Origin: Escherichia phage vB_EcoS-Ro145clw
Length of the DNA stretch: 42,031 nucleotides
Sequence record: MG852086.2
Strand: one strand, 5' to 3'
The position numbers and the translations under genes are program-made. Below, piece by piece: positions 5,756-40,450 of this stretch. The notes under the pieces are model-generated. The model was not told the origin of the DNA, ran no database searches, and saw only the letters and a list, made by a program, of their open reading frames with translations. Numbering within the stretch: the first letter of the stretch is position 1; each line of letters starts with the position of its first letter.

Positions 5756-5759
5756 GTAA

Positions 5760-5779
5760 AAGGCCCCGAAAGGGGCCTT
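5760..5779 (-). terminator. GC hairpin AAGGCCCC GAAA GGGGCCTT, terminator oriented for the minus strand
   Basis: Perfect 8 bp stem; A-run on plus strand just before it gives a U-tract on the minus strand after HNH gene 5781..6275. Confidence 0.5.
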
Positions 5780-5780
5780 A

Positions 5781-6275
5781 CTATTTACCGTGGTTCTCGT
5801 GGAACCCCAAATCTCTTTCAGCAACTCTCCTCGCGGCAACTGCATCTAGTATCGTCTTAAAGCACCCGATATGTGTTTTTACGTTATTGTTGAATATCTG
5901 CGCGTACCACAACCTTTCTTTCGCGTTCCAGTAGACTCCGGTTACTCCTGATTTATTATTACGCTGTTTTGACATATTTTTATGGTTTTCCGCATTGGAC
6001 TTTTTAGCTAAGTTAAGCGGTCTATTGTTTATTCGGTCATGGTCTAGATGGTCTATTTGATCTGACGAGGTTAGCTTATTGTTAGGATTGTTTAAGTCCC
6101 AAGCTATACGGTGCGCCGCATGCCATTTACCCCGGAAAAATATCCTTCTATATCCGTCTCGCTGGACGGTACCTGCTTCCTCTCCAGCCTTAGCCCTCCC
6201 GGACCGGGTTACTCTGTTAAATATCCTTCCTGAAATTAAGTCGTATATGAAAAATTCATTCCAATCCATAATCAT
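5781..6275 (-). CDS. HNH homing endonuclease with AP2-type DNA-binding domain
   Basis: 164 aa; HNH core GKWHAAHRIAWDL...IDHLDHDRINNRPLNL; AP2-like SGVTGVYWNAKERLWYAQI; AT-rich; SD AGGAG. Confidence 0.8.
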   Translation of the reverse strand: MIMDWNEFFIYDLISGRIFNRVTRSGRAKAGEEAGTVQRDGYRRIFFRGKWHAAHRIAWDLNNPNNKLTSSDQIDHLDHDRINNRPLNLAKKSNAENHKNMSKQRNNKSGVTGVYWNAKERLWYAQIFNNNVKTHIGCFKTILDAVAARRVAERDLGFHENHGK

Positions 6276-6288
6276 CTCCTATTGTGAT

Positions 6289-6311
6289 AAGGCCCCGAAA
6301 GGGGCCTTTTT
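6289..6311 (+). terminator. second copy of the identical hairpin AAGGCCCCGAAAGGGGCCTT followed by T5 (plus-oriented terminator)
   Basis: 20/20 identity with 5760..5779; followed by TTTTT on the plus strand. Confidence 0.5.
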
Positions 6312-6312
6312 C

Positions 6313-6543
6313 TTACTCATCAATATTACTCCTGTACTCCCGTAACTTCTCCAGACTCTCAATTGCTTCCGCTAAGTCGGTTCCTGTGTCCTTGTGCCCC
6401 CGCAAGCCCATACACAATAGCTTCTTCAATGCGTGCTGTAACGCCGGGTCGCGGATGTCGAAGGCACGTAGCACGTCGTAAACGTCTACTGTCATAGTGC
6501 TGCCGTGAGTGTTTGTCATTGTGCGGTTGTATTTTGAAGTCAT
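6313..6543 (-). CDS. hypothetical protein (76 aa)
   Basis: SD GGGGAG upstream on the minus strand; preferred over the overlapping 6359..6550 frame. Confidence 0.4.
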   Translation of the reverse strand: MTSKYNRTMTNTHGSTMTVDVYDVLRAFDIRDPALQHALKKLLCMGLRGHKDTGTDLAEAIESLEKLREYRSNIDE

Positions 6544-6556
6544 AAATCAATCTCCC

Positions 6557-7027
6557 CTACTCATGGTTTTCATGAAAACCGTATTTACTCTCGGCGGCTT
6601 TACGCGCGGCAACCGCTACATCAAAATCGTCGTAAAGCCCTAAATGCACTTGTTTGTAGTTAACTTTTATAAACGCGCGCCACTTACCCGCGGCTTTGTG
6701 GAAACTTACACCTGTAGCCCCGGATTTATTTATCTTTCTCATAGTTTTATTTTTACTGTCCCCTGTATTGTCGGTGGCGCGTAGATTTTCTATTCTATTG
6801 TCTAGCCTGTTATGGTTTATGTGGTCTATTTGAGTTTTCCTGTCTAAGTCGCATTTATTATAAAGACACCATGCTATGCGGTGGACATACACTGTTTTAC
6901 CACCCATACCGCAGCACAGATAGCCTCTTACACCAACCGTACCAACCTCAGCACCAGTAGATATCCTGGTAACCTGCCCCGTCTCAGGGCAGTATTTAAA
7001 TTGTTTTGAAACATCAAGATACTTCAT
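6557..7027 (-). CDS. HNH homing endonuclease with AP2-type DNA-binding domain (paralog of 5781..6275)
   Basis: 156 aa; HNH core HRIAWCLYN...IDHINHNRLDNRIENL; AP2-like SGATGVSFHKAAGKWRAFI; shares C-terminal GFHENH with the other HNH. Confidence 0.8.
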   Translation of the reverse strand: MKYLDVSKQFKYCPETGQVTRISTGAEVGTVGVRGYLCCGMGGKTVYVHRIAWCLYNKCDLDRKTQIDHINHNRLDNRIENLRATDNTGDSKNKTMRKINKSGATGVSFHKAAGKWRAFIKVNYKQVHLGLYDDFDVAVAARKAAESKYGFHENHE

Positions 7028-12609: not shown

Positions 12610-12971
12610 ACATTAATTCTTATACTGGTCTTCCGTATGATTTTCGCCGCCGTAATTGCTGGCACCATGTGTGTAACGTTCGCGCGGACGCGGGGCTCCC
12701 CACGCCCGAGTTTAACGTCGCTTCGCCAACACAGATTAATGATGCCTTTGAAGAAGGCCATAAAGACACTAAAGGCCTCGTACACGTAGAAACTCCGCAA
12801 AACTTCGATGTCGTTCTGATGGCAACGCGACACAGAAACCGTGTAATCTGGCACGCTGGCGTATATTATGGTGGTATGGTCAGTCATTGCGAGCTAGCTA
12901 GTCGCCAGGTACGGTTAGACCGACTGGAAGACTTGCGCGAAACTTATGCGGAGATAGAATTTTGGCGCTGA
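12606..12971 (+). CDS. small NlpC/P60-like cysteine peptidase-domain tail protein (gpK-like, putative)
   Basis: 121 aa; ATGA overlap; conserved Cys (RRRNCWHHV) and downstream His (VIWHAGVYY, MVSHCE) spaced like NlpC/P60 catalytic residues. Confidence 0.45.
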   Translation: MNINSYTGLPYDFRRRNCWHHVCNVRADAGLPTPEFNVASPTQINDAFEEGHKDTKGLVHVETPQNFDVVLMATRHRNRVIWHAGVYYGGMVSHCELASRQVRLDRLEDLRETYAEIEFWR

Positions 12972-15517
12972 TATTACACTACACCCGTAACGAAGACGGT
13001 ACTTTCGACCGCAAACGGTACAACGTACCGCCGATGGAATACGTCGTTGCTAACATCCCTGACGGGGTGCCGGTACGTATTTACCGGGGCGAGATTGGCG
13101 AGGATACGGAAGTAACGGAAGATTTCGAAGCGCTGAAAGAAGACGACGTATTCCATATTATCGAAGGTGCTGGTGGCGGTGGCGGTTTTCTCGGAAAACT
13201 GCTTGACCCATTGGGTGTGCTTAAGTTTATCACTAAACTGATTTCCCCGTCGCAGAAAACGCCTAAAACTAGTTTAGCTAACCAGCAGGCGGAGTCGCCA
13301 AACAACAACCTGACGGACCGAAACAATAAACCTCGCCCGTATGAGCGGTCGTATGATATTTGCGGCAGGGTACAGACTATCCCTAATGACCTCATGACTA
13401 CCTATAAAATATTCGATGAATCCGGCCGAATTATCGAGTATGGATACTACGACGCCGGTCGAGGTTACCTGGATATCAAAGCAGAAGACATTACTGACGG
13501 CGATACTAAAGTACAGGAGATTACAGGTACATCTGTCGCGGTGTATGCGCCGTTTACATCGCCTAACAATACAAATACTCCTCAGCTTCTGGTGGGGGAA
13601 CCTATCAATCAGAATCTTTATATAACTATCGCTTCTAATGAAGTAGACGGAGCCGTTCTTAAAGCCCGTAACGATATAAGGGTTAACCCTAGCGACACGG
13701 GCCGTGTGAGATATGACTCTGCTACAAAAATTGGATACCTGTATGATGGCACGGGGGATTCTGGCTTCGCGGAAATATTATCTGTTGGCGATACCGCGTC
13801 GTTCAATAACTTTGACGTTCCGGACGTAACAAATACCAACGGCAACTTTCGTGTTCTTTATGTCGATAACTTCGAGCTGCGGGTCGACACCGGCGGCGCG
13901 TCTAACTGGGCTGCTTTAGGTTCAACCACCTATTCACTTTCCCCGAGAAGTGACACGTGGGTGGGCCCTGTGAATACGTATGAAAGAACATTAACCGACT
14001 GGACCACCTTAAACCGCCTGGAAGTTGAACGAGTAGTTGCTAACATTGCCGCCGCGAATGGCATGTACAAGGACAACGGCAGTAAATTGCGCACCGCTGT
14101 AACTGTAGAGCTTCAATATCAGCTACTAGATGAATCCGGGGCACCGTACGGAAGCATTTACTCGAAACAGGCCACTATATCCGGGCGGTCCGCAGATTAC
14201 ACCGGGGTCACCATTTACGCCGACCTGCCCGTGCGGTCGAAAGTCAGGGTACGCGCCCGGCGTGTTACCAACCTGGACCTCGATTTCGAGGGCACCGTGG
14301 TAGACGAGGTTTCCTACATCAACCTTTACGGGCAGGTCCGCGACACTACGCCGCATTACGGCAACCGTACTACTGTACACTCTGCACGTAAGCAGACGCC
14401 GCGGGCCGCAGAGATTAAGCAGCCGCAGCTACGTATGGTCGCGACGGAGATGGTGTACAAATACCTCGGCAACGGCGTATTTGACGCGGTTATGACACCT
14501 AATACCCAAGCCGTTCAGTCGTTAATACGCCTGGCGCGGGACCCAGTAGTAGGAAACCTCAATCTCACCACGGCTAACATGGATAAGTTGTTGGCTACGC
14601 AAGCAGAGATTGAAAATTATTTCGGAAATGCTGAGGCTGGGCAGTTCTGCTACACATTCGATGATTACAAAACGACTATGCAGGACATCATCAGCACAAT
14701 AGCTGATGCTATTTTCTGCACGCCATATCGTAAAGGGCAAGACATATTACTGGATTTCGAGCGCCCTCGTATGGGGCCGGAGATGGTATTCACCCACCGC
14801 AGTAAAACAACGGCATCCGAGAGGTGGACTAGGACATTCAACGACGCTCAGGTATACGATAGTCTTAAGTTCTCCTACATCGACCCAGATACCAACGTAA
14901 AAGAGACTATTAGCATTCCAGCCGAAGGTGGTGTTAATACCGAAACGTATGACTCCAAGGGTATACGTAATTATCGCCAGGCGTACTGGGCGGCGTACCG
15001 CCGCTACCAGAAAAACCTGTTGAAGAAGGTAACGGTATCATTCACGGCGACAGAAGAAGGGATTTTTGCAATGCCTGGGCGTGCGGTAAGTGTGGTAAAA
15101 GGTTCGCGTATGGCTCCACAAGACGGCTATGTAATCGCCGTTAACGGGCTTACGCTTACTCTTTCTCGGCCGGTCGCGTTTACTCCTGGGGATGACCACT
15201 CACTGATTCTTAAGAAGCGAGACGGGGGAGTTCAAAGTGTTGCCGTTGTGCCTGGAAGCCACGACCGTGAAGTGGTTATGCTATCCGCGCCGCAGGAGGC
15301 AATTTACACGGGGAATAGCGCACTAAAAACTGAGTTTTCATTCGGCAACGAAGCAAGGCATAATGCTCAGATGATTCTTGTTTCTACAGTTGACCCCGGA
15401 GATGACAGAACAGTTAAGATTACCGGGATTAACTATGAAGCAGATTTCTATAAATACGACGGCGTCGCGCCTTTCGGTCGCGGTTTCTCCGACGGATTCA
15501 GCAACGGTTTTAGTTAA
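12962..15517 (+). CDS. tail tip / host-specificity protein with gpI-like N-terminal region
   Basis: 851 aa, TTG start with SD GGAGA; N-terminus (VRIYRGEIG...GAGGGGGFLGKLL...) resembles lambda gpI-type assembly domain; large C-terminal body; position before tailspike. Confidence 0.55.
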   Translation: MALILHYTRNEDGTFDRKRYNVPPMEYVVANIPDGVPVRIYRGEIGEDTEVTEDFEALKEDDVFHIIEGAGGGGGFLGKLLDPLGVLKFITKLISPSQKTPKTSLANQQAESPNNNLTDRNNKPRPYERSYDICGRVQTIPNDLMTTYKIFDESGRIIEYGYYDAGRGYLDIKAEDITDGDTKVQEITGTSVAVYAPFTSPNNTNTPQLLVGEPINQNLYITIASNEVDGAVLKARNDIRVNPSDTGRVRYDSATKIGYLYDGTGDSGFAEILSVGDTASFNNFDVPDVTNTNGNFRVLYVDNFELRVDTGGASNWAALGSTTYSLSPRSDTWVGPVNTYERTLTDWTTLNRLEVERVVANIAAANGMYKDNGSKLRTAVTVELQYQLLDESGAPYGSIYSKQATISGRSADYTGVTIYADLPVRSKVRVRARRVTNLDLDFEGTVVDEVSYINLYGQVRDTTPHYGNRTTVHSARKQTPRAAEIKQPQLRMVATEMVYKYLGNGVFDAVMTPNTQAVQSLIRLARDPVVGNLNLTTANMDKLLATQAEIENYFGNAEAGQFCYTFDDYKTTMQDIISTIADAIFCTPYRKGQDILLDFERPRMGPEMVFTHRSKTTASERWTRTFNDAQVYDSLKFSYIDPDTNVKETISIPAEGGVNTETYDSKGIRNYRQAYWAAYRRYQKNLLKKVTVSFTATEEGIFAMPGRAVSVVKGSRMAPQDGYVIAVNGLTLTLSRPVAFTPGDDHSLILKKRDGGVQSVAVVPGSHDREVVMLSAPQEAIYTGNSALKTEFSFGNEARHNAQMILVSTVDPGDDRTVKITGINYEADFYKYDGVAPFGRGFSDGFSNGFS

Positions 15518-15529
15518 AGAGGACTCTAT

Positions 15530-17620
15530 ATGTCAAGCGGATGCGGTGACGTTTTAAGCTTGGCGGATTTACAAACCGCCAAGAAACACCAGATTTTTGA
15601 AGCCGAGGTTATCACCGGTAAATCCGGCGGTGTTGCTACGGGAGCTGATATCGATTACGCGACCAACCCTGTTACCGGCCAGACTCAAAAGACGCTACCC
15701 GCCGTGTTGCGTGACGCTGGTTTTTCACCCGTGTCATGGGACTTCGCCACTGGCGGAACGTTAACAGTTAGTGACCGCGACAAAGTGGTGTACGACCCTG
15801 TAAGTGAAACATGGTACTCATACGCAGGTACACTACCTGTTACAGTCCCCGCTGGTTTTAACCCTGTTGGTAATGCGGACTGGAAGCCGCAGACAGACCC
15901 GGATTTGAGGTCCGATTTAACCGCCCCATCATCGGGTCTTATTGTCGATGCATCCAATATTTTCATCAAAGCTAGTTCTCCTGGTACAAAGGATGTTCCG
16001 TTAAACACATTTGCGGGCCAGATGGTTAGTTTACTTAATTTCCAGGGAGTGGTAGCCGATGGTATAACCGATACACGAGCCGGGGTGCAAGCTGCGATAG
16101 ACGCGTGTGCTCTCGCTGGGGTTACGTTATATATCCCAGACGGTGTGTATGCTTTCGGAAACTTCTTCACCCAACCTTCTAATTCTAAGCTAGTTTTCGG
16201 TGAAAATGCATGGTTTAAACTACTAAATAACACCACCTGGCCTGGGCTTGGCGGTATAGGCCACTTCCACAACACCGGAACTAACTACAATGATTTCCTT
16301 AATACGGACGGTGAAACTATTAAGTATGTAGAAGCTACCAATGTAGTCACTGTAGGAATGAAGCTGGACTGTAACAATATTGAGGGTGAAAACGGCATTT
16401 CATCAGCATGGGGTTCTAATATCCGCCATATCCGCCCTATAGTTAAGAATACAGTACACACAAACACCGCTCTAGGCGGTAGGGCGTTTCAGATAGAAGG
16501 TGAGCTAAACCAAGATATTGTAGTATCAGATGCCACTATTATTGATTGCTCTATTGGGTGCAATAGCCAAGGTTTAGCAGGCAGCACAACCGCCAACACC
16601 CGCGCAGTAACTTACGACGGTATTTTCATGAAAAATGTTGGAGTACCATTTAACATCGATGGGCAGGTATCCAACCCCGAAACCGCAGACGGCAGAGTAC
16701 ATTCAGTAACCGCATACAATGTAACATTGCATAATTGTGGCGGGCCGAAAGCACCATTTGCATCCCAATTAGACGGCGGCATTATTTGCGGGGATCGTGG
16801 GGCTGGTTTAGCAATATACGGTCTTCGTTTGATAAATGAGGATTCTTATGGTGGTATAGGCGCGGTGTTTAGAGGGGTTATTTATAACGTAGCTATACAC
16901 GACGCAGATTTAACAGCCCCTTATATTAGTGCCATTGTCGACCACACTCCGCCGGGGTTTGGCTCACCATCACTGGCAGCATTAGGCGGTTTTGTGTCGA
17001 CAAGGAACGTTAAAGTAAACGCGAATATTGACTACATAGCTAATGGGCCTAACAACAGTATAGGTCCTCACAGCCTTAGATTAGATATAGATATGGCTAA
17101 GGCATCTATTACAACATTGTTTGGTTCGAGCATAGCCTCGGACCCTACCACGCTGGCTATGGTGGAAATATTAGATACCAACACCGGGACAAGTAGTGGG
17201 TATCGGTCCTTTGGGGACATATACCGTGAAGGCAACTCCCCATCTGTCTGTATAAAACGAAAAGATTCCATCGGGCCTGTAGTCCCGGTTGATGCGTCTG
17301 GCGCGAGTCTACCCCTTACCCCTAATGGGGTCCAACGTTTTGTTAGAAATGGAAATACCGTCACAATATCTATCGATGTAACTTACCCAACCACAGCGGA
17401 CTCTCGCCCTGCGACCATATCAGGTATTCCGGTTCCAGGAGTAACAGGAGTAAATTATTGCGGCATTGGTACTGTTCTTAACGGTGCTGCTGCTGGTACT
17501 ATTGCGGTGGTTAAAGGTGGGGAAAATTTTATAAGACTTTTAACTCCAACCGGCTCCAATACCCTAAACAGTGATTTATCTGGTAAAAATATTTCTATAT
17601 CACTTACGTATATGTTCTGA
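15530..17620 (+). CDS. tailspike / receptor-binding depolymerase with pectate-lyase-like beta-helix
   Basis: 696 aa; SD AAGAGGA; GC-rich N-terminal anchor domain; central GVTDTRAGVQAAIDACALAGVTLYIPDGVYAF typical of pectate_lyase_3 beta-helix N-cap; AT-richer C-terminal two thirds. Confidence 0.7.
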   Translation: MSSGCGDVLSLADLQTAKKHQIFEAEVITGKSGGVATGADIDYATNPVTGQTQKTLPAVLRDAGFSPVSWDFATGGTLTVSDRDKVVYDPVSETWYSYAGTLPVTVPAGFNPVGNADWKPQTDPDLRSDLTAPSSGLIVDASNIFIKASSPGTKDVPLNTFAGQMVSLLNFQGVVADGITDTRAGVQAAIDACALAGVTLYIPDGVYAFGNFFTQPSNSKLVFGENAWFKLLNNTTWPGLGGIGHFHNTGTNYNDFLNTDGETIKYVEATNVVTVGMKLDCNNIEGENGISSAWGSNIRHIRPIVKNTVHTNTALGGRAFQIEGELNQDIVVSDATIIDCSIGCNSQGLAGSTTANTRAVTYDGIFMKNVGVPFNIDGQVSNPETADGRVHSVTAYNVTLHNCGGPKAPFASQLDGGIICGDRGAGLAIYGLRLINEDSYGGIGAVFRGVIYNVAIHDADLTAPYISAIVDHTPPGFGSPSLAALGGFVSTRNVKVNANIDYIANGPNNSIGPHSLRLDIDMAKASITTLFGSSIASDPTTLAMVEILDTNTGTSSGYRSFGDIYREGNSPSVCIKRKDSIGPVVPVDASGASLPLTPNGVQRFVRNGNTVTISIDVTYPTTADSRPATISGIPVPGVTGVNYCGIGTVLNGAAAGTIAVVKGGENFIRLLTPTGSNTLNSDLSGKNISISLTYMF

Positions 17621-17625
17621 TAACT

Positions 17626-17646
17626 AAGGCCCCAACGGGGCCTTTT
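17626..17646 (+). terminator. intrinsic terminator after tailspike
   Basis: AAGGCCCC AACG GGGGCCTT followed by TTTT; variant of the 5760/6289 hairpin. Confidence 0.55.
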
Positions 17647-23845: not shown

Positions 23846-25083
23846 TCCAAATCCCCCTCTGTTACTTGATTCCACTCAGGCCGTTTATCGTCTGCCGTTG
23901 CAACGCATGGTGCTCCTGGCTTACGAGTAATGAAGTCTTTCAGTTCTTCTTCCGGCACAACTTTAACAGCTTCGGTTGGCGTCATGAGCACTTGCTTCAT
24001 TAGCGCGATGCCGTATTTGCTTGCCACTTTCTCCGCGTCTTTCCACGCGCGATTACCCGGACGACCTTCTACCAGCTTGTAACCCGGCACTTTCTTGCCA
24101 GAATGCAAAGCGGCAGCCATAGCTTTCTCAACCTTGTCGATGTGCTGGCGCAACAACGGCAACTTCTCATACTCGGCGACGAGTTGCTCAGGTGTCAGTT
24201 CCAGTGCAAAATCGTCCTCCAGTTCTTCCGCCAGCACCGCGTTAACGGTTTTTGTACGCGCTGCGCACTGTTCTGAGAACCGACACCACTGGCAACCATC
24301 GACCGACGGCTTGAAGTCCGACGCTTTCAGGTTCTTCTTTCCACGGAAATAGGCATCAAGGGCCCGCAGCGCTCGTTTCCGTGCGAACTTAGCGAACAGT
24401 TCCAGACCTTCAACCGAGATGTCCCACTCCGACGCGCCACCAGCATACGGCTGGAAGATGACCAGGCGAACTACTGTGATGTTATAACGTCTCTTGAGTC
24501 GGCGATAAACACCGAGAGCGTAAAGCATAAGCTGCTTGTTTTCTTTCGCTTCAACACGATGCCGTCCTGTTTTCAGGTCGCCTATAATGAGCATGTGCCC
24601 ATCGGTGTTAGACAGCTCCTGAACGGCAACGAGGTCAGCAGTTCCGAACGTCTCAACGCCTTCATAGCCCGGATGCAATACCTCAGTAAGATTGACGCGC
24701 ATTTCCAGCTTGGCGTAAGTGGCAACGTCGATAATCGCTTTGCAGTAGTCTGTGTACTTGCGCACCTGTTCAATCATGTCAGCCGTAATCAGTACCGCAC
24801 CTTTCATCGGGCTGATTAGTGCCTTAATCTGACCTTTACCCTCATCCAGCACGTAAGCACCGACTTCACGCTCCAACGGCAGCGCAGTGCCTTTGATGTA
24901 CTGGTTTAGATGTACCTCAGCTATTGTGTGCATAGCTGTGCCTAATACCGCAGATTTACCTGACGTGTTAGGGATATCTTTTTCACAGGCCAGCGATGCG
25001 GCGCAGCTTAACCACTTTTTGGCACCTGACGGCGACAGTAAGGCGTGCACATCGTTATTGCCGCCGCGTTCTTTTAAAATCAT
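23842..25083 (-). CDS. PD-(D/E)XK exonuclease with Cas4-like Cys cluster (DUF2800-like)
   Basis: 413 aa from ATG 25083 (SD GGGAGGT); N-terminal Cys plus CQWCRFSEQC; nuclease core GTADLVA...IIGDLKTG...EAKENKQLMLYA. Confidence 0.7.
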   Translation of the reverse strand: MILKERGGNNDVHALLSPSGAKKWLSCAASLACEKDIPNTSGKSAVLGTAMHTIAEVHLNQYIKGTALPLEREVGAYVLDEGKGQIKALISPMKGAVLITADMIEQVRKYTDYCKAIIDVATYAKLEMRVNLTEVLHPGYEGVETFGTADLVAVQELSNTDGHMLIIGDLKTGRHRVEAKENKQLMLYALGVYRRLKRRYNITVVRLVIFQPYAGGASEWDISVEGLELFAKFARKRALRALDAYFRGKKNLKASDFKPSVDGCQWCRFSEQCAARTKTVNAVLAEELEDDFALELTPEQLVAEYEKLPLLRQHIDKVEKAMAAALHSGKKVPGYKLVEGRPGNRAWKDAEKVASKYGIALMKQVLMTPTEAVKVVPEEELKDFITRKPGAPCVATADDKRPEWNQVTEGDLE

Positions 25084-25351
25084 TCCGTACCTCCCACTGG
25101 TCAATTAAATGCCGCGTCTGGTGCTGGCAGTGCATAGCCCACCCATACATCGACTCGAAGACATAAAAGTCAGGTTTGGCGAAGGTCGTTCGCTTAATCT
25201 GCGACACGCGGCGACCTATATCTTTAGGGCGCGGTACTTTGCCTAAGTACGCCATCTCTTCCATCCGGTGCGCACCTGACGGCGCACGCAACAGCCACAA
25301 CGCCTCTGTGTTATCCCGCCTGTCGATGGCGCGGTAGAGTTGGTAAATCAT
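25055..25351 (-). CDS. hypothetical protein (98 aa)
   Basis: SD GAGGT 9 nt upstream; overlaps exonuclease start by about 29 nt. Confidence 0.4.
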   Translation of the reverse strand: MIYQLYRAIDRRDNTEALWLLRAPSGAHRMEEMAYLGKVPRPKDIGRRVSQIKRTTFAKPDFYVFESMYGWAMHCQHQTRHLIDQWEVRNDFKRTRRQ

Positions 25352-25371
25352 AATTCCGAACCTCAGTTAAA

Positions 25372-25387
25372 GCGGCCCGAAGGCCGC
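25372..25387 (-). terminator. weak hairpin GCGGCC CGAA GGCCGC (possible attenuator)
   Basis: Perfect 6 bp stem; only a short U-run on the minus strand. Confidence 0.3.
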
Positions 25388-25394
25388 AGGATAG

Positions 25395-25895
25395 TTATTC
25401 TTCTTCGAAATATTTGTTCTTGATTGCCGTCAGGCGTTCCAGATATTCAGCCAAGTCTTCGTCTTTAATCGCCGCAATCTTCATCTTCTTACCTGTGAAC
25501 TCTTCCAGCAGTTCATCGGAATCGTCGCACGCGGCATCGCTCGGACCTTCATTAATTGCATCGTCGATGGCCTGAATCTGGTCACGCAGAGACTGGTAAT
25601 CGACTTCTTCCTTCCCTTCTTCCGGCTCTGGCTCTGGCTGCTCTACTTTAGCTTTACGCGGCTTGCGTTTTGGCTTCTCTTCTTCTGCTGATTTAGTGTC
25701 GACGATGTCTTCACCTTCGACCGGGATTTCTTTTGTTGCTTCTTTTGCGCACTCGTCTACCGCTTCTTTGGTATACATTACCGTCTCTACTTCTAGTGGC
25801 GCGGCAACCCGAACAACTTGTTTCGCGCTGTTCGCAGCAATCAGTTCATGTGCAACTACGAAACGTTCCAGTAATTTTAAGAATTGGTCTAACAT
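25395..25895 (-). CDS. highly acidic early protein (function unknown; DNA-mimic candidate)
   Basis: 166 aa very rich in Glu/Asp with Pro-Glu repeats (EQPEPEPEEGKEE); first gene downstream of promoter site F. Confidence 0.5.
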   Translation of the reverse strand: MLDQFLKLLERFVVAHELIAANSAKQVVRVAAPLEVETVMYTKEAVDECAKEATKEIPVEGEDIVDTKSAEEEKPKRKPRKAKVEQPEPEPEEGKEEVDYQSLRDQIQAIDDAINEGPSDAACDDSDELLEEFTGKKMKIAAIKDEDLAEYLERLTAIKNKYFEEE

Positions 25896-25926
25896 TTGTT
25901 TCTCTCCTCTCGTTTGGTATGGGCTA

Positions 25927-25956
25927 ACTATAATAGCTGACTATTCATGATGTCAA
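25927..25956 (-). promoter_or_regulatory. sigma70-like promoter TTGACA-N18-TATAGT containing AATAG-N4-CTATT (site F)
   Basis: Minus strand reads TTGACATCATGAATAGTCAGCTATTATAGT; divergent from the XRE gene. Confidence 0.5.
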
Positions 25957-25976
25957 TGGGCTTTTCTAAAATAATT

Positions 25977-25990
25977 AATATGGTACTATT
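25977..25990 (+). promoter_or_regulatory. operator-like AATAT-GGTA-CTATT overlapping a TGgTACTAT extended -10 (site G) upstream of XRE gene
   Basis: One mismatch from the AATAG-N4-CTATT consensus; weak -35; about 30 nt upstream of ATG 26021. Confidence 0.35.
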
Positions 25991-26020
25991 CACATATCAA
26001 CTGACTAAGGAGTGATTAAC

Positions 26021-26236
26021 ATGCAACCATCTGAACTAGGCATCCGTGTAGAACAGCGCCGTAAAGAACTCGGCATCTCCCAGCGCCGTCTGGCTGTCCT
26101 GACGGGAGTTTCTCAGGGCGCAATTAATCAGCTTGCACTCGGAGTAACTCAGGACGTCCGCCCGGCAACGCTGTTTAAACTGGCGGAAGTGCTGGAAGTA
26201 GACGCCAAGTGGCTGGCGTTAGGTGAAGGGGCTTAA
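26021..26236 (+). CDS. XRE-family (Cro/CI-type) HTH transcriptional regulator
   Basis: 71 aa from ATG 26021 with SD AAGGAG; ELGISQRRLAVLTGVSQGAINQLALG is a textbook HTH_XRE motif. Confidence 0.75.
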   Translation: MQPSELGIRVEQRRKELGISQRRLAVLTGVSQGAINQLALGVTQDVRPATLFKLAEVLEVDAKWLALGEGA

Positions 26237-26250
26237 TGCCCCTTTCTTTT
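26226..26250 (+). terminator. intrinsic terminator after XRE gene
   Basis: AAGGGGC TTAAT GCCCCTT followed by TCTTTTT; stop codon lies in the loop. Confidence 0.6.
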
Positions 26251-26253
26251 TAC

Positions 26254-28494
26254 CTATTCCAAATCTTCCTCTGTAACTTTCAGCATCTCATTCGGTTCGT
26301 ATATTGTCTTCGGCCTTAATCTGTCACCTATCTTTTCGGGTATCCGGTATGTGCCGGGGGCAACTTCACCGTTAACATCACACCCGAGCATCAACTCACC
26401 GTCTTTCAGCATCTTCTCAAGATGGTGGTTGGTGATGGCGTGGTCCCCCGAGTTCGCCACTATCTGCCGTTGGGTAAAACCTCGTCCGGTGTCGTCGGAC
26501 TGTTGCAGGTCTTCCAGCGCGGCGAGTATTGATTCCTTACGCCCTTCATCCTTCCCGCGTTTTACAGCATTCTTTACGTTTTCTTTACCTTCCTTTGTCA
26601 GCCCTTCTTCCCGCTCTTTCTCCTCGTCAGTTTTGAATGGCTCGAAGCCCCACGGCATCAACACAAGCGCCTTGTGTGGTTCCGGCAGGTCGAGGTTTAC
26701 GATTGTGCCGTATTCCTCCGTGCTGCCCAGGAACTCCACCGCGCGGTACTCTTTCGGCGGTGGCGCTTCACGGAACTGTACCGACTCCAGCACCATACCA
26801 ACCGTCTTCTGTTGAGGCCCGTGCTTAAATTTAGAGTGGTATACGTTTATCTGACGGTCGGTTGCGCGTTCAATTGTCAGCTCCACGTCGACACCCGCAT
26901 ACAGCGCCCCACTGCCACGGGCTTTCTTTCCACCCTTCGGGGTATGGTGAACAACGCCCACCGCAGCTTTGGTTGCGTCGCGTACTTCTTTCAGGATGGC
27001 AATGACTTTACCCATGCCGATTGCCGTCGATGAACTGTTCTCGTCGAACTTATCAATCGTCAGGGCCAGGGTCTGGTTGAGGGTATCGAACGCGACCATC
27101 CCAATTGGCTCGTCACCCGCGGTTTCGCGCATCAACTTAATCAGGCTTTTCAGTTTTCCGACTTCACCCATGTCGATGACATGTACATAATCTTTACCTT
27201 CCTCGCCATATTTAGCCGCGAGTGCGTCGATGCGTGTGCGTGTAGCAGCACCACCCTCACCGTCGATATAGAAATGGTGGCAACGCTGGGTATCTGCCCC
27301 TGCAAACCGGTATCCGGCGGCGCTAAGGTACATCATCCCCAGCGTATAGAACGATTTGTACGTGCCAGATTCCCCGACGATATCCCAGATACAATCCGAC
27401 GGCATGTACCCTTCAACGACGAAATCAGCCTTTACCGGTTCCGGTAACTCGTCCTCCTCTGGATCCTCGTCGTCTTCCAGGTCGTCCAGGCTGCATGAAA
27501 CATATTCACGTGCACCCCATCCGATGGCCTCTGCAACTTCACTGAACGGCAGCCCGGTCGCATCGCACGCGTATTTCCACACATCTTTCGGTGGCATGCC
27601 TTCTGTCGCCGCAATGTCGGTGTCGTGAATCATGGTTACGTTCGGCGCTTCGTACCCTTCACGTGGGAAACACAGCAGGAAGTCGTCCGGGCGTGGCGTC
27701 GGGTCGCTGTAGTTTTCTGCGTGTTCTGGTGTGGCAGGCATCTTAAGGCCGCGAGGCGTCATGATGCCGCCGTACTCAAACGCCAGCGATTCAAACGCAT
27801 CTGTAAACGCGGTGCGCAGTTCTTCCGGAATCTGGTAGTCAGATGCGCTGCTTACCTCGTAATCCGGGATGCCTTCCAGTAACTCGTCAGGGTCAATCAG
27901 GTCATTGCGGCGCGCCCAGATAACGGTAGAGCCGACCGGCGGCAGGTACATAGGCTGAGACAGAGTGAACCCGCTGCGGTCGGCACCCATGCCTTTGAAG
28001 AAGTGCTCCAGCAATCCGTGACGAACGCGGATGATGTCACCACCTTCAACCGGACGCCCCAGCGGCATGACGACGCGAAAGCGCGGTGACTCATCGGTAT
28101 GTGATGCCGTAGTGTAAAGGCACATAGCCTGACGGCTGCGCTTAACCAGGCACACCACTTCCTGATACTCTTCCGGCGTTGCGCTGTCGAAGTCCAGGTA
28201 CGCCAGCGACGATTTACTTACAGACGCGTCACAGCGATAAAAGAAGCCTTTGCGCGCTTGCTTAAAGTCACCGGTTTCCGGGTCTTTTACGGTGCTGTGC
28301 GTAGCGTCGCACGCGGCAGTAACATAGCCAGGTGCTGTCTTCGGGTTAATTCCGTCGCGAACGGAATCGAGTGGACGGATTAACTCTTTCAGGTCGTCCA
28401 GTGTTGCCGTGTGTGTTGTTCTGACGTTTATATCCTTTTTCTCCGCCCGCGCGTTGCGACGAGACCACGAGTAGGATAAGATTGCATCGGACAT
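26254..28494 (-). CDS. primase-helicase-like replication protein (N-terminal primase-like region plus RecA/AAA_25-like ATPase)
   Basis: 746 aa; SD GAAGGAAA; P-loop IVGESGTYKS and Walker-B-like MVAFDTLNQ; Lys/Glu-rich linker; C-terminal tail ...VTEEDLE. Confidence 0.65.
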   Translation of the reverse strand: MSDAILSYSWSRRNARAEKKDINVRTTHTATLDDLKELIRPLDSVRDGINPKTAPGYVTAACDATHSTVKDPETGDFKQARKGFFYRCDASVSKSSLAYLDFDSATPEEYQEVVCLVKRSRQAMCLYTTASHTDESPRFRVVMPLGRPVEGGDIIRVRHGLLEHFFKGMGADRSGFTLSQPMYLPPVGSTVIWARRNDLIDPDELLEGIPDYEVSSASDYQIPEELRTAFTDAFESLAFEYGGIMTPRGLKMPATPEHAENYSDPTPRPDDFLLCFPREGYEAPNVTMIHDTDIAATEGMPPKDVWKYACDATGLPFSEVAEAIGWGAREYVSCSLDDLEDDEDPEEDELPEPVKADFVVEGYMPSDCIWDIVGESGTYKSFYTLGMMYLSAAGYRFAGADTQRCHHFYIDGEGGAATRTRIDALAAKYGEEGKDYVHVIDMGEVGKLKSLIKLMRETAGDEPIGMVAFDTLNQTLALTIDKFDENSSSTAIGMGKVIAILKEVRDATKAAVGVVHHTPKGGKKARGSGALYAGVDVELTIERATDRQINVYHSKFKHGPQQKTVGMVLESVQFREAPPPKEYRAVEFLGSTEEYGTIVNLDLPEPHKALVLMPWGFEPFKTDEEKEREEGLTKEGKENVKNAVKRGKDEGRKESILAALEDLQQSDDTGRGFTQRQIVANSGDHAITNHHLEKMLKDGELMLGCDVNGEVAPGTYRIPEKIGDRLRPKTIYEPNEMLKVTEEDLE

Positions 28495-28552
28495 GTTGTG
28501 TTTCCTTCAGCAAGTAATTTGGCCTCGGCGTTCACCGCGTCGGGGCTTTCTT

Positions 28553-28786
28553 TTATTCCAGGTCTTCTAAAGTAGCGGTCATTCCGCGAACTTCTGCAAC
28601 AGCGCTATATTTCCCGCCAACGTTTTTTACGACACCGGATTTAACCAGCACGCGTAACGACGCTTCAATAATGGCGGAACTATAGTACTTAAAATAACTG
28701 CGGCGCAAGTCAAGAACACTACACGACCCTTTTTTACGTGTAAGCGAAACTACCGCCGTAAATACTCGTGACTGGAACTCTGTCAT
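28553..28786 (-). CDS. hypothetical protein (77 aa) ending in LEDLE
   Basis: ORF coupled to upstream AlpA-like gene; shares the C-terminal DLE tail with primase and exonuclease. Confidence 0.4.
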   Translation of the reverse strand: MTEFQSRVFTAVVSLTRKKGSCSVLDLRRSYFKYYSSAIIEASLRVLVKSGVVKNVGGKYSAVAEVRGMTATLEDLE

Positions 28787-28953
28787 TTCACATTCTCCTT
28801 AATCCACGCTTCCACTTTATCCGGGTCAAACGTACCTGGCTGACGGCGGCCCATAATGCGGATACAGCAATCAGGGAACTTCCCACTCTTTAACCAGTTA
28901 TTCAGCGTTCGACGAGTAACCCCGATACGCTCGGCTACCTCATTCTGCGTCAT
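28783..28953 (-). CDS. AlpA/Xis-like HTH DNA-binding protein
   Basis: 56 aa from ATG 28953 (SD GAGGG); MTQNEVAERIGVTRRTLNNWLKSGKFP...VEAWI fits the AlpA-type HTH pattern. Confidence 0.55.
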   Translation of the reverse strand: MTQNEVAERIGVTRRTLNNWLKSGKFPDCCIRIMGRRQPGTFDPDKVEAWIKENVK

Positions 28954-28985
28954 TCTCAAACCCTCATTATCAGTTAACGAAACCA

Positions 28986-29014
28986 AGTATACATTGCGAA
29001 TAATGGGAAATCAA
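28986..29014 (-). promoter_or_regulatory. sigma70-like promoter TTGATT-N17-TATACT
   Basis: Minus strand reads TTGATTTCCCATTATTCGCAATGTATACT about 30 nt upstream of ATG 28953. Confidence 0.45.
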
Positions 29015-29293
29015 ACATAATCTCACCTATTGACATTACGGAAATCTTCGTTTAAGGTGCTTCTATATCTTAGTTACTTTGATTCCTGTTCACCTTGTAA
29101 AACCCGCCGAAAACGAGCGCACAACGCGAAGTGTTAGGCGGCAGTTTACTGAACATTCGAATTATCGTAACTTCCCTTCCTTAGTATCTCAGTTGCCCTG
29201 GGCAAGCTCTATTCTCATCGGCAGCATATCTCTTAAGTAACTGATTTTTTTAATGTGCTGTAGATTCGCAACCGTAAAAATGTAACGATTATT

Positions 29294-29317
29294 GGGCAGG
29301 CTTAAGGCCTGCCCTTT
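29294..29317 (+). other. GC hairpin GGGCAGGC TTAAG GCCTGCCC followed by TTT inside long intergenic region
   Basis: Perfect 8 bp stem; no gene upstream on the plus strand. Confidence 0.35.
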
Positions 29318-29384
29318 AGTTACCAAGTAATAAGAATAAAGGCACATCCCTACCTGAAGAATCACAACGGCAACGAATCTTTGC

Positions 29385-29413
29385 TTGCATACCCCAATAT
29401 AATAGGCTACTAT
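29385..29413 (+). promoter_or_regulatory. sigma70-like promoter TTGCAT-N17-TACTAT with AATAG-GCTA-CTATT (site C)
   Basis: TTGCATACCCCAATATAATAGGCTACTATTCACTT; near-identical to site A; about 30 nt upstream of ATG 29448. Confidence 0.5.
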
Positions 29414-29447
29414 TCACTTATCGAAACGAGACAGAGGGGTGAGGGTT

Positions 29448-29633
29448 ATGTTTAAGAAGGGTCAGTTGGTCAGGGACAAACAAACCGGCGATTTATTCGA
29501 GGTAATAGAATCGAATTTAATGTGGTTTGGTTTTGTAGAGGTTAATAGCGCGGCGGGCTACGGAAAGGGTTTACTTCGTAAGTGCGATTTAGAACTCATC
29601 GGCAACAATTTTAAATTCAAAGGGGCGAAGTGA
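29448..29633 (+). CDS. hypothetical early protein (61 aa)
   Basis: ATG with SD GAGGGG/GAGGG; first gene after promoter site C. Confidence 0.45.
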   Translation: MFKKGQLVRDKQTGDLFEVIESNLMWFGFVEVNSAAGYGKGLLRKCDLELIGNNFKFKGAK

Positions 29634-29887
29634 TGGAAGAATTAATTTGTATTGAATCTGAACCAGATGTGCAGGGTTGGTTTGTAAAAGGTAACAAGTA
29701 TTCGTCTGGAGTATATTACGACGGCCGTCGATACGTTTTAGATGAAGACGGTGATGAATGGGATTTAGAGGACGCGGTTGGAGGAACTTTAACTATTAGT
29801 TTCTTCAATGCTGTTGCCGCCTCATTCACAACGGCATCGAATCATGATGCGAGTGCCGACGACTCTGAGGGAGGTTGCCGTGAATAA
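29633..29887 (+). CDS. hypothetical acidic early protein (84 aa)
   Basis: ATG overlaps upstream stop (TGATG); acidic. Confidence 0.45.
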   Translation: MEELICIESEPDVQGWFVKGNKYSSGVYYDGRRYVLDEDGDEWDLEDAVGGTLTISFFNAVAASFTTASNHDASADDSEGGCRE

Positions 29888-40420: not shown

Positions 40421-40423
40421 TAA

Positions 40424-40450
40424 AAGGCCCCATTATGGGGCCTTAGTTTT
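40424..40450. terminator. bidirectional terminator between convergent genes
   Basis: AAGGCCCC ATTAT GGGGCCTT with T-run on the plus side and A-rich on the other; variant of the recurring hairpin. Confidence 0.55.

Follow-up and report, generated by a model that had tools for sequence, protein, structure and literature searches.

The tailspike gene of Escherichia phage vB_EcoS-Ro145clw seems to change in nucleotide composition along its length, which raises the question of whether its receptor-binding part was acquired by horizontal exchange and, if so, where the junctions lie. We analysed a stretch of 42,031 nucleotides from sequence record MG852086.2, hereafter the window, which is a rotated copy of Escherichia phage vB_EcoS-Ro145c2YLVW (99.9% identity), a Kagunavirus whose host is STEC O145. 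In the list of open reading frames, the gene occupies positions 15530-17620 on the plus strand and encodes a receptor-binding protein of 696 residues. It corresponds to positions 27573-29663 of GenBank MH051334 (100%/99.9% identical), where the product, AVZ45589.1, is annotated as a 'hypothetical protein'. This product matches PHROG tail spike families with E-values down to 2e-47. The gene is located right after a gpJ-like tail tip gene and ahead of a converging helicase operon, and this order is the same in the window and in five relatives, whether the gene is annotated or not. Both its position and its homologous anchor are thus those of Kagunavirus/Guernseyvirinae tailspikes.

The anchor corresponds to residues 1-126 (15530-15907, plus strand) and is conserved throughout Kagunavirus. 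Comparison of the first 420 nt with phage records gave 106 matches at 82-88% nucleotide identity, nearly all of them E. coli Kagunavirus, and phrog_29731 matches residues 1-113 (E 9e-49 to 2e-47). In the AlphaFold2 model, pLDDT is below 50 for residues 1-53 and reaches 75-90 for residues 60-120; residues ~60-122 fold, with good model confidence, into a small β domain that has a weak likeness to Pfam Tail_spike_N. The corresponding family, PF18668, stayed below its gathering threshold in a Pfam search (17.7 bits versus 25, residues 77-112), and it is present in homologues carried on other anchors. It is probable that the β domain and Tail_spike_N are distantly related. A sequence search against solved structures returned only a marginal match for the anchor, 9lna.

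The rest of the gene has different relatives. Among phage records, the remaining 1671 nt match only the two records of this phage itself and phage P818, a member of Drexlerviridae/Nouzillyvirus with an O145 host. The two sequences are 92.6% identical over 15926-17620 at the nucleotide level and 92.5% identical in amino acids across the module, while no other DNA homology to the tailspike region is detectable in P818. The separate comparison of both parts of the gene thus gives different nearest relatives, Kagunavirus for one and P818 for the other. Between the window and P818, the module has a dN of 0.031 and a dS of 0.19. The resulting ratio of 0.16 shows that purifying selection keeps the protein functional, and the dS value indicates that their common ancestor is not recent. 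A third copy was found on a 152 kb metagenome contig of Ackermannviridae, L009, which matches 15815-17646 at 88.9% and therefore spans both ends of the module. Its baseplate genes are 99% identical to those of phage LHE287, and its nearest phages by BLAST are LHE287, YX22 and fGh-Ecl02.

Homologues of the module (36-88% amino-acid identity) are carried on anchors of Ackermannviridae, T7-like, N4-like, P22 and Drexler types. The T7-like anchor belongs to PF03906 and is encoded at the gp17 position, the P22 head-binding anchor belongs to PF09008, and one N4-like carrier is a contig (L086) assigned by BLAST. Two metagenome contigs combine Kagunavirus-type anchors with versions of the module that are 65% and 47% identical in amino acids. 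None of 70 IMG/VR loci of the same tailspike type carries it. We also considered a resident prophage as the source, which was rejected at 85% identity or more, since a search of 5,426 complete genomes of E. coli returned no near match to the module.

The limits of the module are sharp. Homology with the five Kagunavirus relatives ends at 15907-15919 and restarts at 17620-17622, exactly where the stop codon ends or at most two bases from there; the left boundary is thus resolved to about 20 nt and the right one to 2 nt. Homology with P818 starts at 15926. The break by homology falls at 15908-15926 (codons 127-133), about 30-40 nt upstream of position 15950 proposed in the first-pass annotation. 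BLAST end points, alignment and sliding identity delimit the left junction as a stretch of about 90 nt (15830-15925, plus strand) encoding LPVTVPAGFNPVGNADWKPQTDPDLRSDL, which Kagunavirus anchors and the Ackermannviridae tailspike gene have in similar form. Judged by its position and length, this stretch appears to match motifs one and two, which are given lengths of 44 and 95 nt in PMC10408124 (Pas, Latka, Fieseler and Briers 2023, Virol J 20:174). At the right junction, alignment revealed a terminator-like hairpin, AAGGCCCC-AAC-GGGGCCTTTT (17626-17646, plus strand), 6 nt past the stop codon. The same hairpin also follows the modules of Kagunavirus relatives, which are unrelated, and the homologous Ackermannviridae gene of contig L009. 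It was assessed by RNA folding (-15.9 kcal/mol, z = -3.3) and by motif search, which gave 4 occurrences in the window where 0 are expected and retrieved the motif in 49 of 84 loci. A simple terminator scan did not detect it because of the T-run rule of that scan.

The module starts with a linker or neck (residues 127-164; 15908-16021, plus strand), recognized from protein alignment, from pLDDT values below 50 at residues 123-161 and from a sliding identity of 0.90-0.95 with L009 versus 0.47-0.63 with P818. It is followed by a right-handed parallel β-helix (residues ~165-565; 16022-17224, plus strand), modelled by AlphaFold2 with pLDDT mostly between 83 and 97, and by a C-terminal β-sandwich (residues ~577-696; 17258-17617, plus strand), whose separate model has a pLDDT of 93. 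The composition break had been thought to coincide with the start of the β-helix, but the helix begins about 40 codons after the homology break. The β-helix is presumed to be the body of the spike that would bind and cleave the O145 O-antigen, which contains Neu5Ac and FucNAm (PMC7685785). The top Foldseek matches in the PDB are all tailspikes, namely CBA120 TSP3/TSP4, HK620, Det7 and Sf6 (probability 1.0; taking the best chain of each, E-values run from 3e-10 to 7e-9). All our models are monomers, and full-chain TM-scores are low since domain orientations differ in the monomer model. The term 'pectate-lyase-like' used in the first-pass annotation is justified for the fold but not for family membership by sequence: a Pfam search of the 696-residue protein left PF00295 (Glyco_hydro_28) below its gathering threshold (19.6 bits versus 22.9) and did not report PF12708 (Pectate_lyase_3). 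Some homologues at 35-37% identity do have PF12708/PF00295 in precomputed annotation, and a sequence search against solved structures gave only a marginal match, 3zpp, for the first turns of the helix. The acidic residues D280, E287, E323, D422 and D501 are invariant in 19 homologues and constitute candidate catalytic residues. Among solved structures, the β-sandwich comes closest to the Det7 tailspike, with a TM of 0.61 across about 126-130 aligned columns. The β-sandwich also shares 51% amino-acid identity with the C-terminal domain of ORF159, a 204-residue structural protein of the Dickeya phage LIMEstone1.

Does composition follow these limits? The first 378 nt of the gene have a GC content of 52.6% (GC1/2/3 = 0.571/0.500/0.508), while the remaining 1713 nt are at 45.4% (0.501/0.475/0.387). 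From anchor to module, GC1 falls by 7 points and GC2 by 2.5 points. The contrast has modest significance, with Fisher p values of about 0.01-0.02 (0.012 for all positions, 0.016 for third positions). The genome is at 50.6% GC and the backbone at 50.8%, from which the 45.4% of the module departs. The C-terminal part falls within the lowest 2.7% of genome windows of equal size, and the GC3 of the whole gene (0.409) is the lowest among the 25 genes that are 450 nt or longer (mean 0.551, sd 0.068). The gene does become AT-richer after the anchor, as the first-pass annotation had noticed, and its C-terminal part is an outlier, but the step is modest and an equally large one is seen at ~8% of positions genome-wide. 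The anchor, described there as GC-rich and conserved-looking, is indeed conserved, but its GC3 lies below the gene mean and is backbone-like. The different codon choices noted there find weak support: GC3 falls, but with amino-acid content controlled the contrast in codon fit was not significant in a within-amino-acid permutation (p = 0.13). The best single change-point in GC lies at nt 1993 of the gene, with a log-likelihood gain of 6.3 versus 3.2-3.6 at nt 378-420. AT content is highest over the last ~100 nt of the gene (from about 17522), and the GC3 of the last 291 nt is 0.268. Since the best change-point is away from the anchor boundary, composition alone fails to place the junction.

The relatives are discordant, the boundaries sharp and the arms conserved; together with the fold and the observed composition values, this makes it very likely that this tailspike is modular and consists of an anchor joined to a horizontally exchanged receptor-binding module, as the first-pass annotation had proposed. 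Residues 1-126 would fix the spike to the Kagunavirus tail tip and be inherited vertically with the backbone, while residues 127-696, comprising linker, β-helix and β-sandwich, would make up a module that binds the E. coli O145 O-antigen as its receptor and travels horizontally among unrelated lytic phages. Isolation hosts and the literature point to the O145 specificity, and the spike may also cleave this O-antigen. The entry or last replacement of the module may have occurred through homologous recombination at short conserved arms on either side of it. The left arm would be the ~90 nt encoding the anchor's end (…NPVGNADWKPQTDPDLR…), and the right arm the terminator hairpin just 3' of the stop codon. 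The low G+C of the module, chiefly at third codon positions, would mirror a shared module pool and low-GC carriers (Ackermannviridae at about 44.7%, Drexlerviridae at about 46%) and not the Kagunavirus backbone. We lean towards a transfer from a low-GC Ackermannviridae-like donor into Kagunavirus.

The meaning of the GC step itself was examined in the 70 related tailspike loci from IMG/VR, which include 45 different modules. Anchor GC exceeds module GC in all 70 of these Guernseyvirinae-type loci and in all 45 representatives of distinct module clusters, with mean differences of 6.4 points in GC and 8.4 points in GC3. The step is thus generic and silent on the date of arrival of the O145 module; it is present, as the first-pass annotation expected of a replacement, but it is not specific to this event. 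Such generality would also be expected if the step were intrinsic to tailspike modules, through the amino-acid make-up of the β-helix and/or selection for AT-ending or rarer codons (e.g. for slow co-translational folding). The concomitant fall in GC1 and GC2 agrees with this explanation, as does the absence of drift towards the backbone composition in the window lineage: three-taxon polarised substitutions gave, with small counts, 24 AT-to-GC versus 22 GC-to-AT changes and hence no signal of amelioration. However, the deficit varies with the backbone. Module and backbone GC are 45.4 and 50.8% in the window, 44.9 and 46.1% in P818, 44.6 and 44.7% in L009, and 41.4 and 42.5% in the N4-like contig, so that the deficit is 5-8 points in backbones of 49-51% GC and close to zero in low-GC ones, a pattern more in line with a common low-GC pool than with a constant offset. 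Across the copies of the window, P818 and L009, the GC3 of the module is 0.388/0.392/0.375, and in P818 the module GC3 (0.388) is above that of its own anchor (0.325). An intrinsic bias, which moreover accounts for composition only and leaves the discordant relatives unexplained, seems to us a rather doubtful cause of the step. We tentatively propose, as a somewhat better prospect although well short of established, that the receptor-binding modules of these E. coli phages constitute a gene pool of their own, low in GC (about 41-46%), whose turnover outpaces drift toward the 50-52% GC Kagunavirus backbone, and that the O145 module came from an Ackermannviridae-type donor by exchange via the anchor-end motif and the AAGGCCCC-type hairpin. 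Such a pool would explain the step found in every related locus across the 45 module types, the vanishing deficit in low-GC carriers and the lack of an AT-to-GC excess.

Transfer could also have occurred in the opposite direction or via a third party; the module would then be of old standing in Kagunavirus, and phages of Drexlerviridae and Ackermannviridae would have received it by export. The 65% and 47% identical versions on Kagunavirus-type anchors indicate that the module family may be long-standing there, which makes the direction favoured above a tentative one, and the 47% version has a GC content of 48.8% in a 52% GC backbone, as long residence predicts. Against this, the GC content of the module in the closest trio (at least 89% nucleotide identity) is 44.6-45.4%, a value of Ackermannviridae and Drexlerviridae backbones and not of Kagunavirus; the module is missing from the 70 IMG/VR loci; and the window and the Ackermannviridae copy have in common both the linker and the sequence surrounding stop codon and hairpin. 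We judge this export unlikely. That no exchange took place at all, the C-terminal part having diverged fast under diversifying selection next to a conserved anchor and the composition differing by chance, would agree with the weak within-gene statistics, i.e. the frequency of equal GC steps along the genome and the codon-fit result. It is nevertheless extremely improbable given the 92.6% identical module in a phage of another family that is otherwise unrelated over this region, the purifying and not diversifying dN/dS, and the sharpness of both boundaries.

The tailspike is a real yet ordinary mosaic, previously described in this phage. We rejected the idea of a new kind of mosaic because PMC10408124 already lists this protein, as Ro145c2YLVW_RBP (AVZ45589.1; O145), the group B founder of an O145 RBP subtype. 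That paper places in the same subtype P818_RBP, with O145 attributed to horizontal transfer and an anchor boundary at residue 229, and the RBP of a Lederbergvirus prophage (FHI58). AlphaFold2-multimer trimers were reported for Ro145c2YLVW_RBP, and conserved motifs before and after the module were proposed as recombination hotspots (PMC10408124). The O145 receptor-binding domain of the FHI58 Lederbergvirus prophage, grafted on an R2 tailocin, killed an O145 strain (PMC11762384). Module swaps on conserved anchors are how these phages change host serogroup, and they underlie the engineering of tailspikes and tailocins against STEC. The practical value of the present data is small and consists of exact junction coordinates and of the Ackermannviridae copy across both junctions. 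In this phage group, the GC step serves as a general marker of the anchor/module boundary that is easy to compute, and not as the sign of a recent event.

The architecture found here, a particle-binding N-terminus followed by a helix and a β-sandwich, is that of the solved β-helix O-antigen tailspikes (CBA120 TSP3/TSP4, HK620, Sf6, Det7, P22 type), with which the protein shares just 10-13% sequence identity. The K1-specific Kagunavirus phages K1G, K1H and K1ind and other Kagunavirus tailspikes have the same anchor, gene position, 3' hairpin and GC step, but their C-terminal modules are unrelated and no DNA homology was found to 15920-17620. Compared with PMC10408124, which contains no composition or codon analysis and does not include Kagunavirus among the genera listed with a downstream terminator motif, the new elements are the Ackermannviridae copy spanning both junctions, the occurrence of the module family on T7-like and N4-like carriers, the right boundary in Kagunavirus at the AAGGCCCC-type hairpin and the subfamily-wide GC step. 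Exchange at this hairpin, if true, would carry the published idea of a 'motif three' over to Kagunavirus. The protein falls within the O145 RBP subtype, defined by at least 30% amino-acid identity to a member across the module and a shared host serogroup, through its 92.5% identity to the P818 module and the O145 hosts of both phages. Both studies converge on the same protein, the same P818 partner and the idea of hotspots in conserved flanking motifs, and the anchor boundary published at residue 124 agrees with the one placed here at residues 126-132.

With its start point rotated, the window corresponds to Escherichia phage vB_EcoS-Ro145c2YLVW (GenBank MH051334 / NC_073322; 99.9% identical), a Kagunavirus (Guernseyvirinae) whose isolation host is Shiga-toxin-producing E. 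coli O145. Its tailspike ORF (15530-17620, plus strand, 696 aa; labelled 'hypothetical protein' in GenBank) is preceded by a gpJ-like tail tip gene (12962-15517) and is convergent with a minus-strand helicase operon. The two parts of the tailspike gene were searched separately. For the first 420 nt, 106 phage records gave matches at 82-88% identity, almost all of them E. coli Kagunavirus phages, whereas matches of the remaining 1671 nt are limited to the phage's own two records and P818 (ON062054; Drexlerviridae, Nouzillyvirus), whose host is E. coli O145. These different relatives support the proposal of the first-pass annotation that the module, i.e. the remainder of the tailspike, was swapped horizontally onto a conserved N-terminal anchor. 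The only addition from a protein search of the phage collection was a C-terminal domain of 118 aa in Dickeya Limestonevirus phages, and a large protein collection yielded 19 module relatives (query excluded) on many different N-termini. No near match of the module was found in 5,426 complete E. coli genomes. Compared with P818, the module has a dN of 0.031 and a dS of 0.19 (ratio 0.16); the tailspike protein is functional and shaped by purifying selection, and the two copies do not share a very recent ancestor.

Among metagenome contigs, a 152-kb Ackermannviridae contig (L009), with baseplate genes 99% identical to those of phage LHE287, carries the O145-type gene with a 1-nt frameshift, which splits it into successive called ORFs of 479 and 208 aa. 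Two N4-like contigs carry module relatives, a T7-like contig has a module protein in the gp17 position, two contigs with a Kagunavirus-type anchor have modules 65% and 47% identical, and one module relative bears the P22 head-binding domain PF09008. The 65% identical version lies on a 45-kb contig (L012, ERR13998736; GC 46%) whose tail module and tailspike anchor are of the Kagunavirus type; its downstream genes are quite different (PAPS reductase, a Lambda Kil-like protein, a DEAD helicase), and it may represent a different Guernseyvirinae-like lineage.

Backbone homology to five Kagunavirus relatives, determined by BLAST, stops at 15907-15919 and restarts at 17620-17622, on the last base of the tailspike stop codon or at most 2 bases from it. 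Homology to P818 runs from 15926 to 17620 (92.6% nucleotide identity). These end points place the left junction within the stretch coding for DPDLRSDL (aa 123-130), so that the break at about 15950 proposed initially lies some 30-40 nt too far downstream. Nor does the break coincide with the start of the beta-helix, as had been assumed: in an AlphaFold2 model of the tailspike (mean pLDDT 80), a low-confidence linker spans aa 123-161 and the helix starts near aa 165 (nt ~16022), some 40 codons after the break. The L009 match extends across both junctions (15815 to 17646, 88.9% identity) and overlaps the Kagunavirus anchor end on the left, the window, other Kagunavirus phages and the Ackermannviridae gene all being similar from ~15830 to 15919. 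Inside the module, the window resembles the Ackermannviridae copy at 15860-15980 and P818 at 16400-16850, which indicates that the three close copies are mosaics of one another.

Mosaicism is also seen in the tail tip gene, where a second patch (13702-13990) lacks DNA homology to any of the five nearest relatives compared and is 96.5% identical to another Kagunavirus set (Shashou, Schulenburg, Sciku, fFiEco03). Relative to MH051334, the window shows 31 mismatches overall and a 114-nt indel at 13213-13285 within this gene; the ORF is unbroken in the window (851 aa, as in phage AV104) and is split in MH051334 into two CDS (24891-25217 and 25281-27560).

The right junction is followed by a hairpin, AAGGCCCC-AAC-GGGGCCTTTT (17626-17646; -15.9 kcal/mol, z = -3.3), through which the L009 match extends. 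The same hairpin is found in the examined Kagunavirus relatives with unrelated modules and behind the Ackermannviridae gene; it is present in 49 of 84 fetched loci, and most related loci have it downstream of their tailspike gene. Its GC-rich motif (AAGGCCCC, a 3-5-nt loop, GGGGCCTTTT) has four copies in the window (5758-5779, 6289-6310, 17626-17646 and 40422-40444), against 0 expected by chance. In P818, in L012 and in an N4-like contig (L086), the hairpin behind the module is of a second type, AAAACCCCGCTTCGGCGGGGTT. In L009, the hairpin and about 35 more bases (CTTATATAGAGTTTACTGTTTGCATTA…) after the O145-type gene (L009:8174-8235) recur almost unchanged 4.6 kb further on, behind another gene (L009:12768-12840), and could be an internal recombination site. 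Two of the four copies in the window, at 5758-5779 (minus) and 6289-6310 (plus), flank the first of two paralogous HNH endonuclease genes (5781-6275 and 6557-7027, minus strand; phrog_99, E 2e-49 and 1e-54). Surrounded by plus-strand tail genes, the HNH region (5758-7027) forms the genome's other low-GC patch, and no other genes in the genome have as poor a codon fit as these two. It looks as if the first HNH gene was inserted between the stop of the upstream tail gene (5755) and that gene's original terminator.

A composition break within the tailspike gene had been proposed, and the C-terminal part is indeed AT-richer. GC falls from 52.6% in the first 378 nt (GC1/2/3 = 0.571/0.500/0.508) to 45.4% in the remaining 1713 nt (0.501/0.475/0.387; Fisher p = 0.012 for all positions, 0.016 for third positions). 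This contrast is nevertheless modest: a step of this size is found at about 8% of genome positions, and the best single change-point lies at gene nt 1993, within the very AT-rich 3' end, away from nt 400. With a genome GC of 50.6%, the anchor is backbone-like rather than GC-rich, as it had been termed, and it is the C-terminal part that stands out, ranking in the lowest 2.7% of same-sized genome windows. The tailspike GC3 (0.409) is the lowest among 25 genes of at least 450 nt (mean 0.551, sd 0.068). The different codon choices described earlier were not significant within the tailspike once amino-acid content was controlled (p = 0.13).

The composition step is not special to this tailspike. 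Anchor GC exceeds module GC in all 70 IMG/VR loci with the same anchor type, which represent 45 distinct module clusters (45/45 representatives), by 6.4 points on average (8.4 for GC3); flank GC exceeds module GC in 68 of the 70. None of these loci has an O145-type module, and five named Kagunavirus phages share the pattern. Module and backbone GC are 45.4% and 50.8% in the window, 44.9% and 46.1% in P818, 44.6% and 44.7% in L009, 41.4% and 42.5% in an N4-like contig, 43.1% and 51.0% in the T7-like contig, and 48.8% and 52.0% in a diverged Kagunavirus-like copy. The deficit is thus confined to the higher-GC backbones. Module GC3 is 0.388, 0.392 and 0.375 in the window, P818 and L009, respectively. 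On the window lineage, 24 AT-to-GC against 22 GC-to-AT changes, both small counts, give no signal of amelioration. Together these values point to a probable pool of low-GC modules, of which Kagunavirus would be a recipient.

The 'pectate-lyase-like' description of the beta-helix holds at the level of fold but not of sequence. The top Foldseek matches in the PDB are the CBA120 TSP3/TSP4, HK620, Det7 and Sf6 tailspikes (probability 1.0; best-chain E values between 3e-10 and 7e-9), whereas Pfam GH28 stays below cut-off (19.6 against 22.9 bits), as does Tail_spike_N (17.7 against 25). The last ~120 residues, modelled separately, form a beta-sandwich (pLDDT 93) whose closest counterparts are the Det7 tailspike (TM 0.61) and the receptor-binding heads of phages and reovirus. 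Residues 577-694 (17258-17611) share 51% identity with the C-terminal part of a structural 'tail spike protein' that stands alone in Dickeya phage LIMEstone1 (ORF159, 204 aa) and its relatives, which suggests that the beta-sandwich is an independently moving domain. Five acidic residues invariant in the 19 homologues (D280, E287, E323, D422 and D501) are only candidate catalytic residues.

The O145 antigen, whose constituents include Neu5Ac and FucNAm (PMC7685785), is the presumed target of the module, as judged from the isolation hosts of Ro145c2YLVW and P818 and from two studies. One groups the Ro145c2YLVW tailspike, P818 and a Lederbergvirus prophage RBP into an O145 subtype (PMC10408124); in the other, an R2 tailocin with an O145 module from that prophage lineage killed an O145 strain (PMC11762384). 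Modular tailspike exchange in Ro145c2YLVW is already known: Pas et al. 2023 (PMC10408124) list Ro145c2YLVW_RBP (AVZ45589.1) as O145 with an anchor boundary at aa 124, and P818_RBP as O145 by horizontal transfer with a boundary at aa 229. They describe 44- and 95-nt motifs at the anchor end and a 20-nt downstream terminator motif as likely recombination hotspots; Kagunavirus is absent from the genera listed with the downstream motif, and the study contains no GC or codon analysis. Our analysis extends theirs by an Ackermannviridae copy spanning both junctions, by further carriers of the module family, by the Kagunavirus hairpin as the right boundary and by the generality of the GC step.
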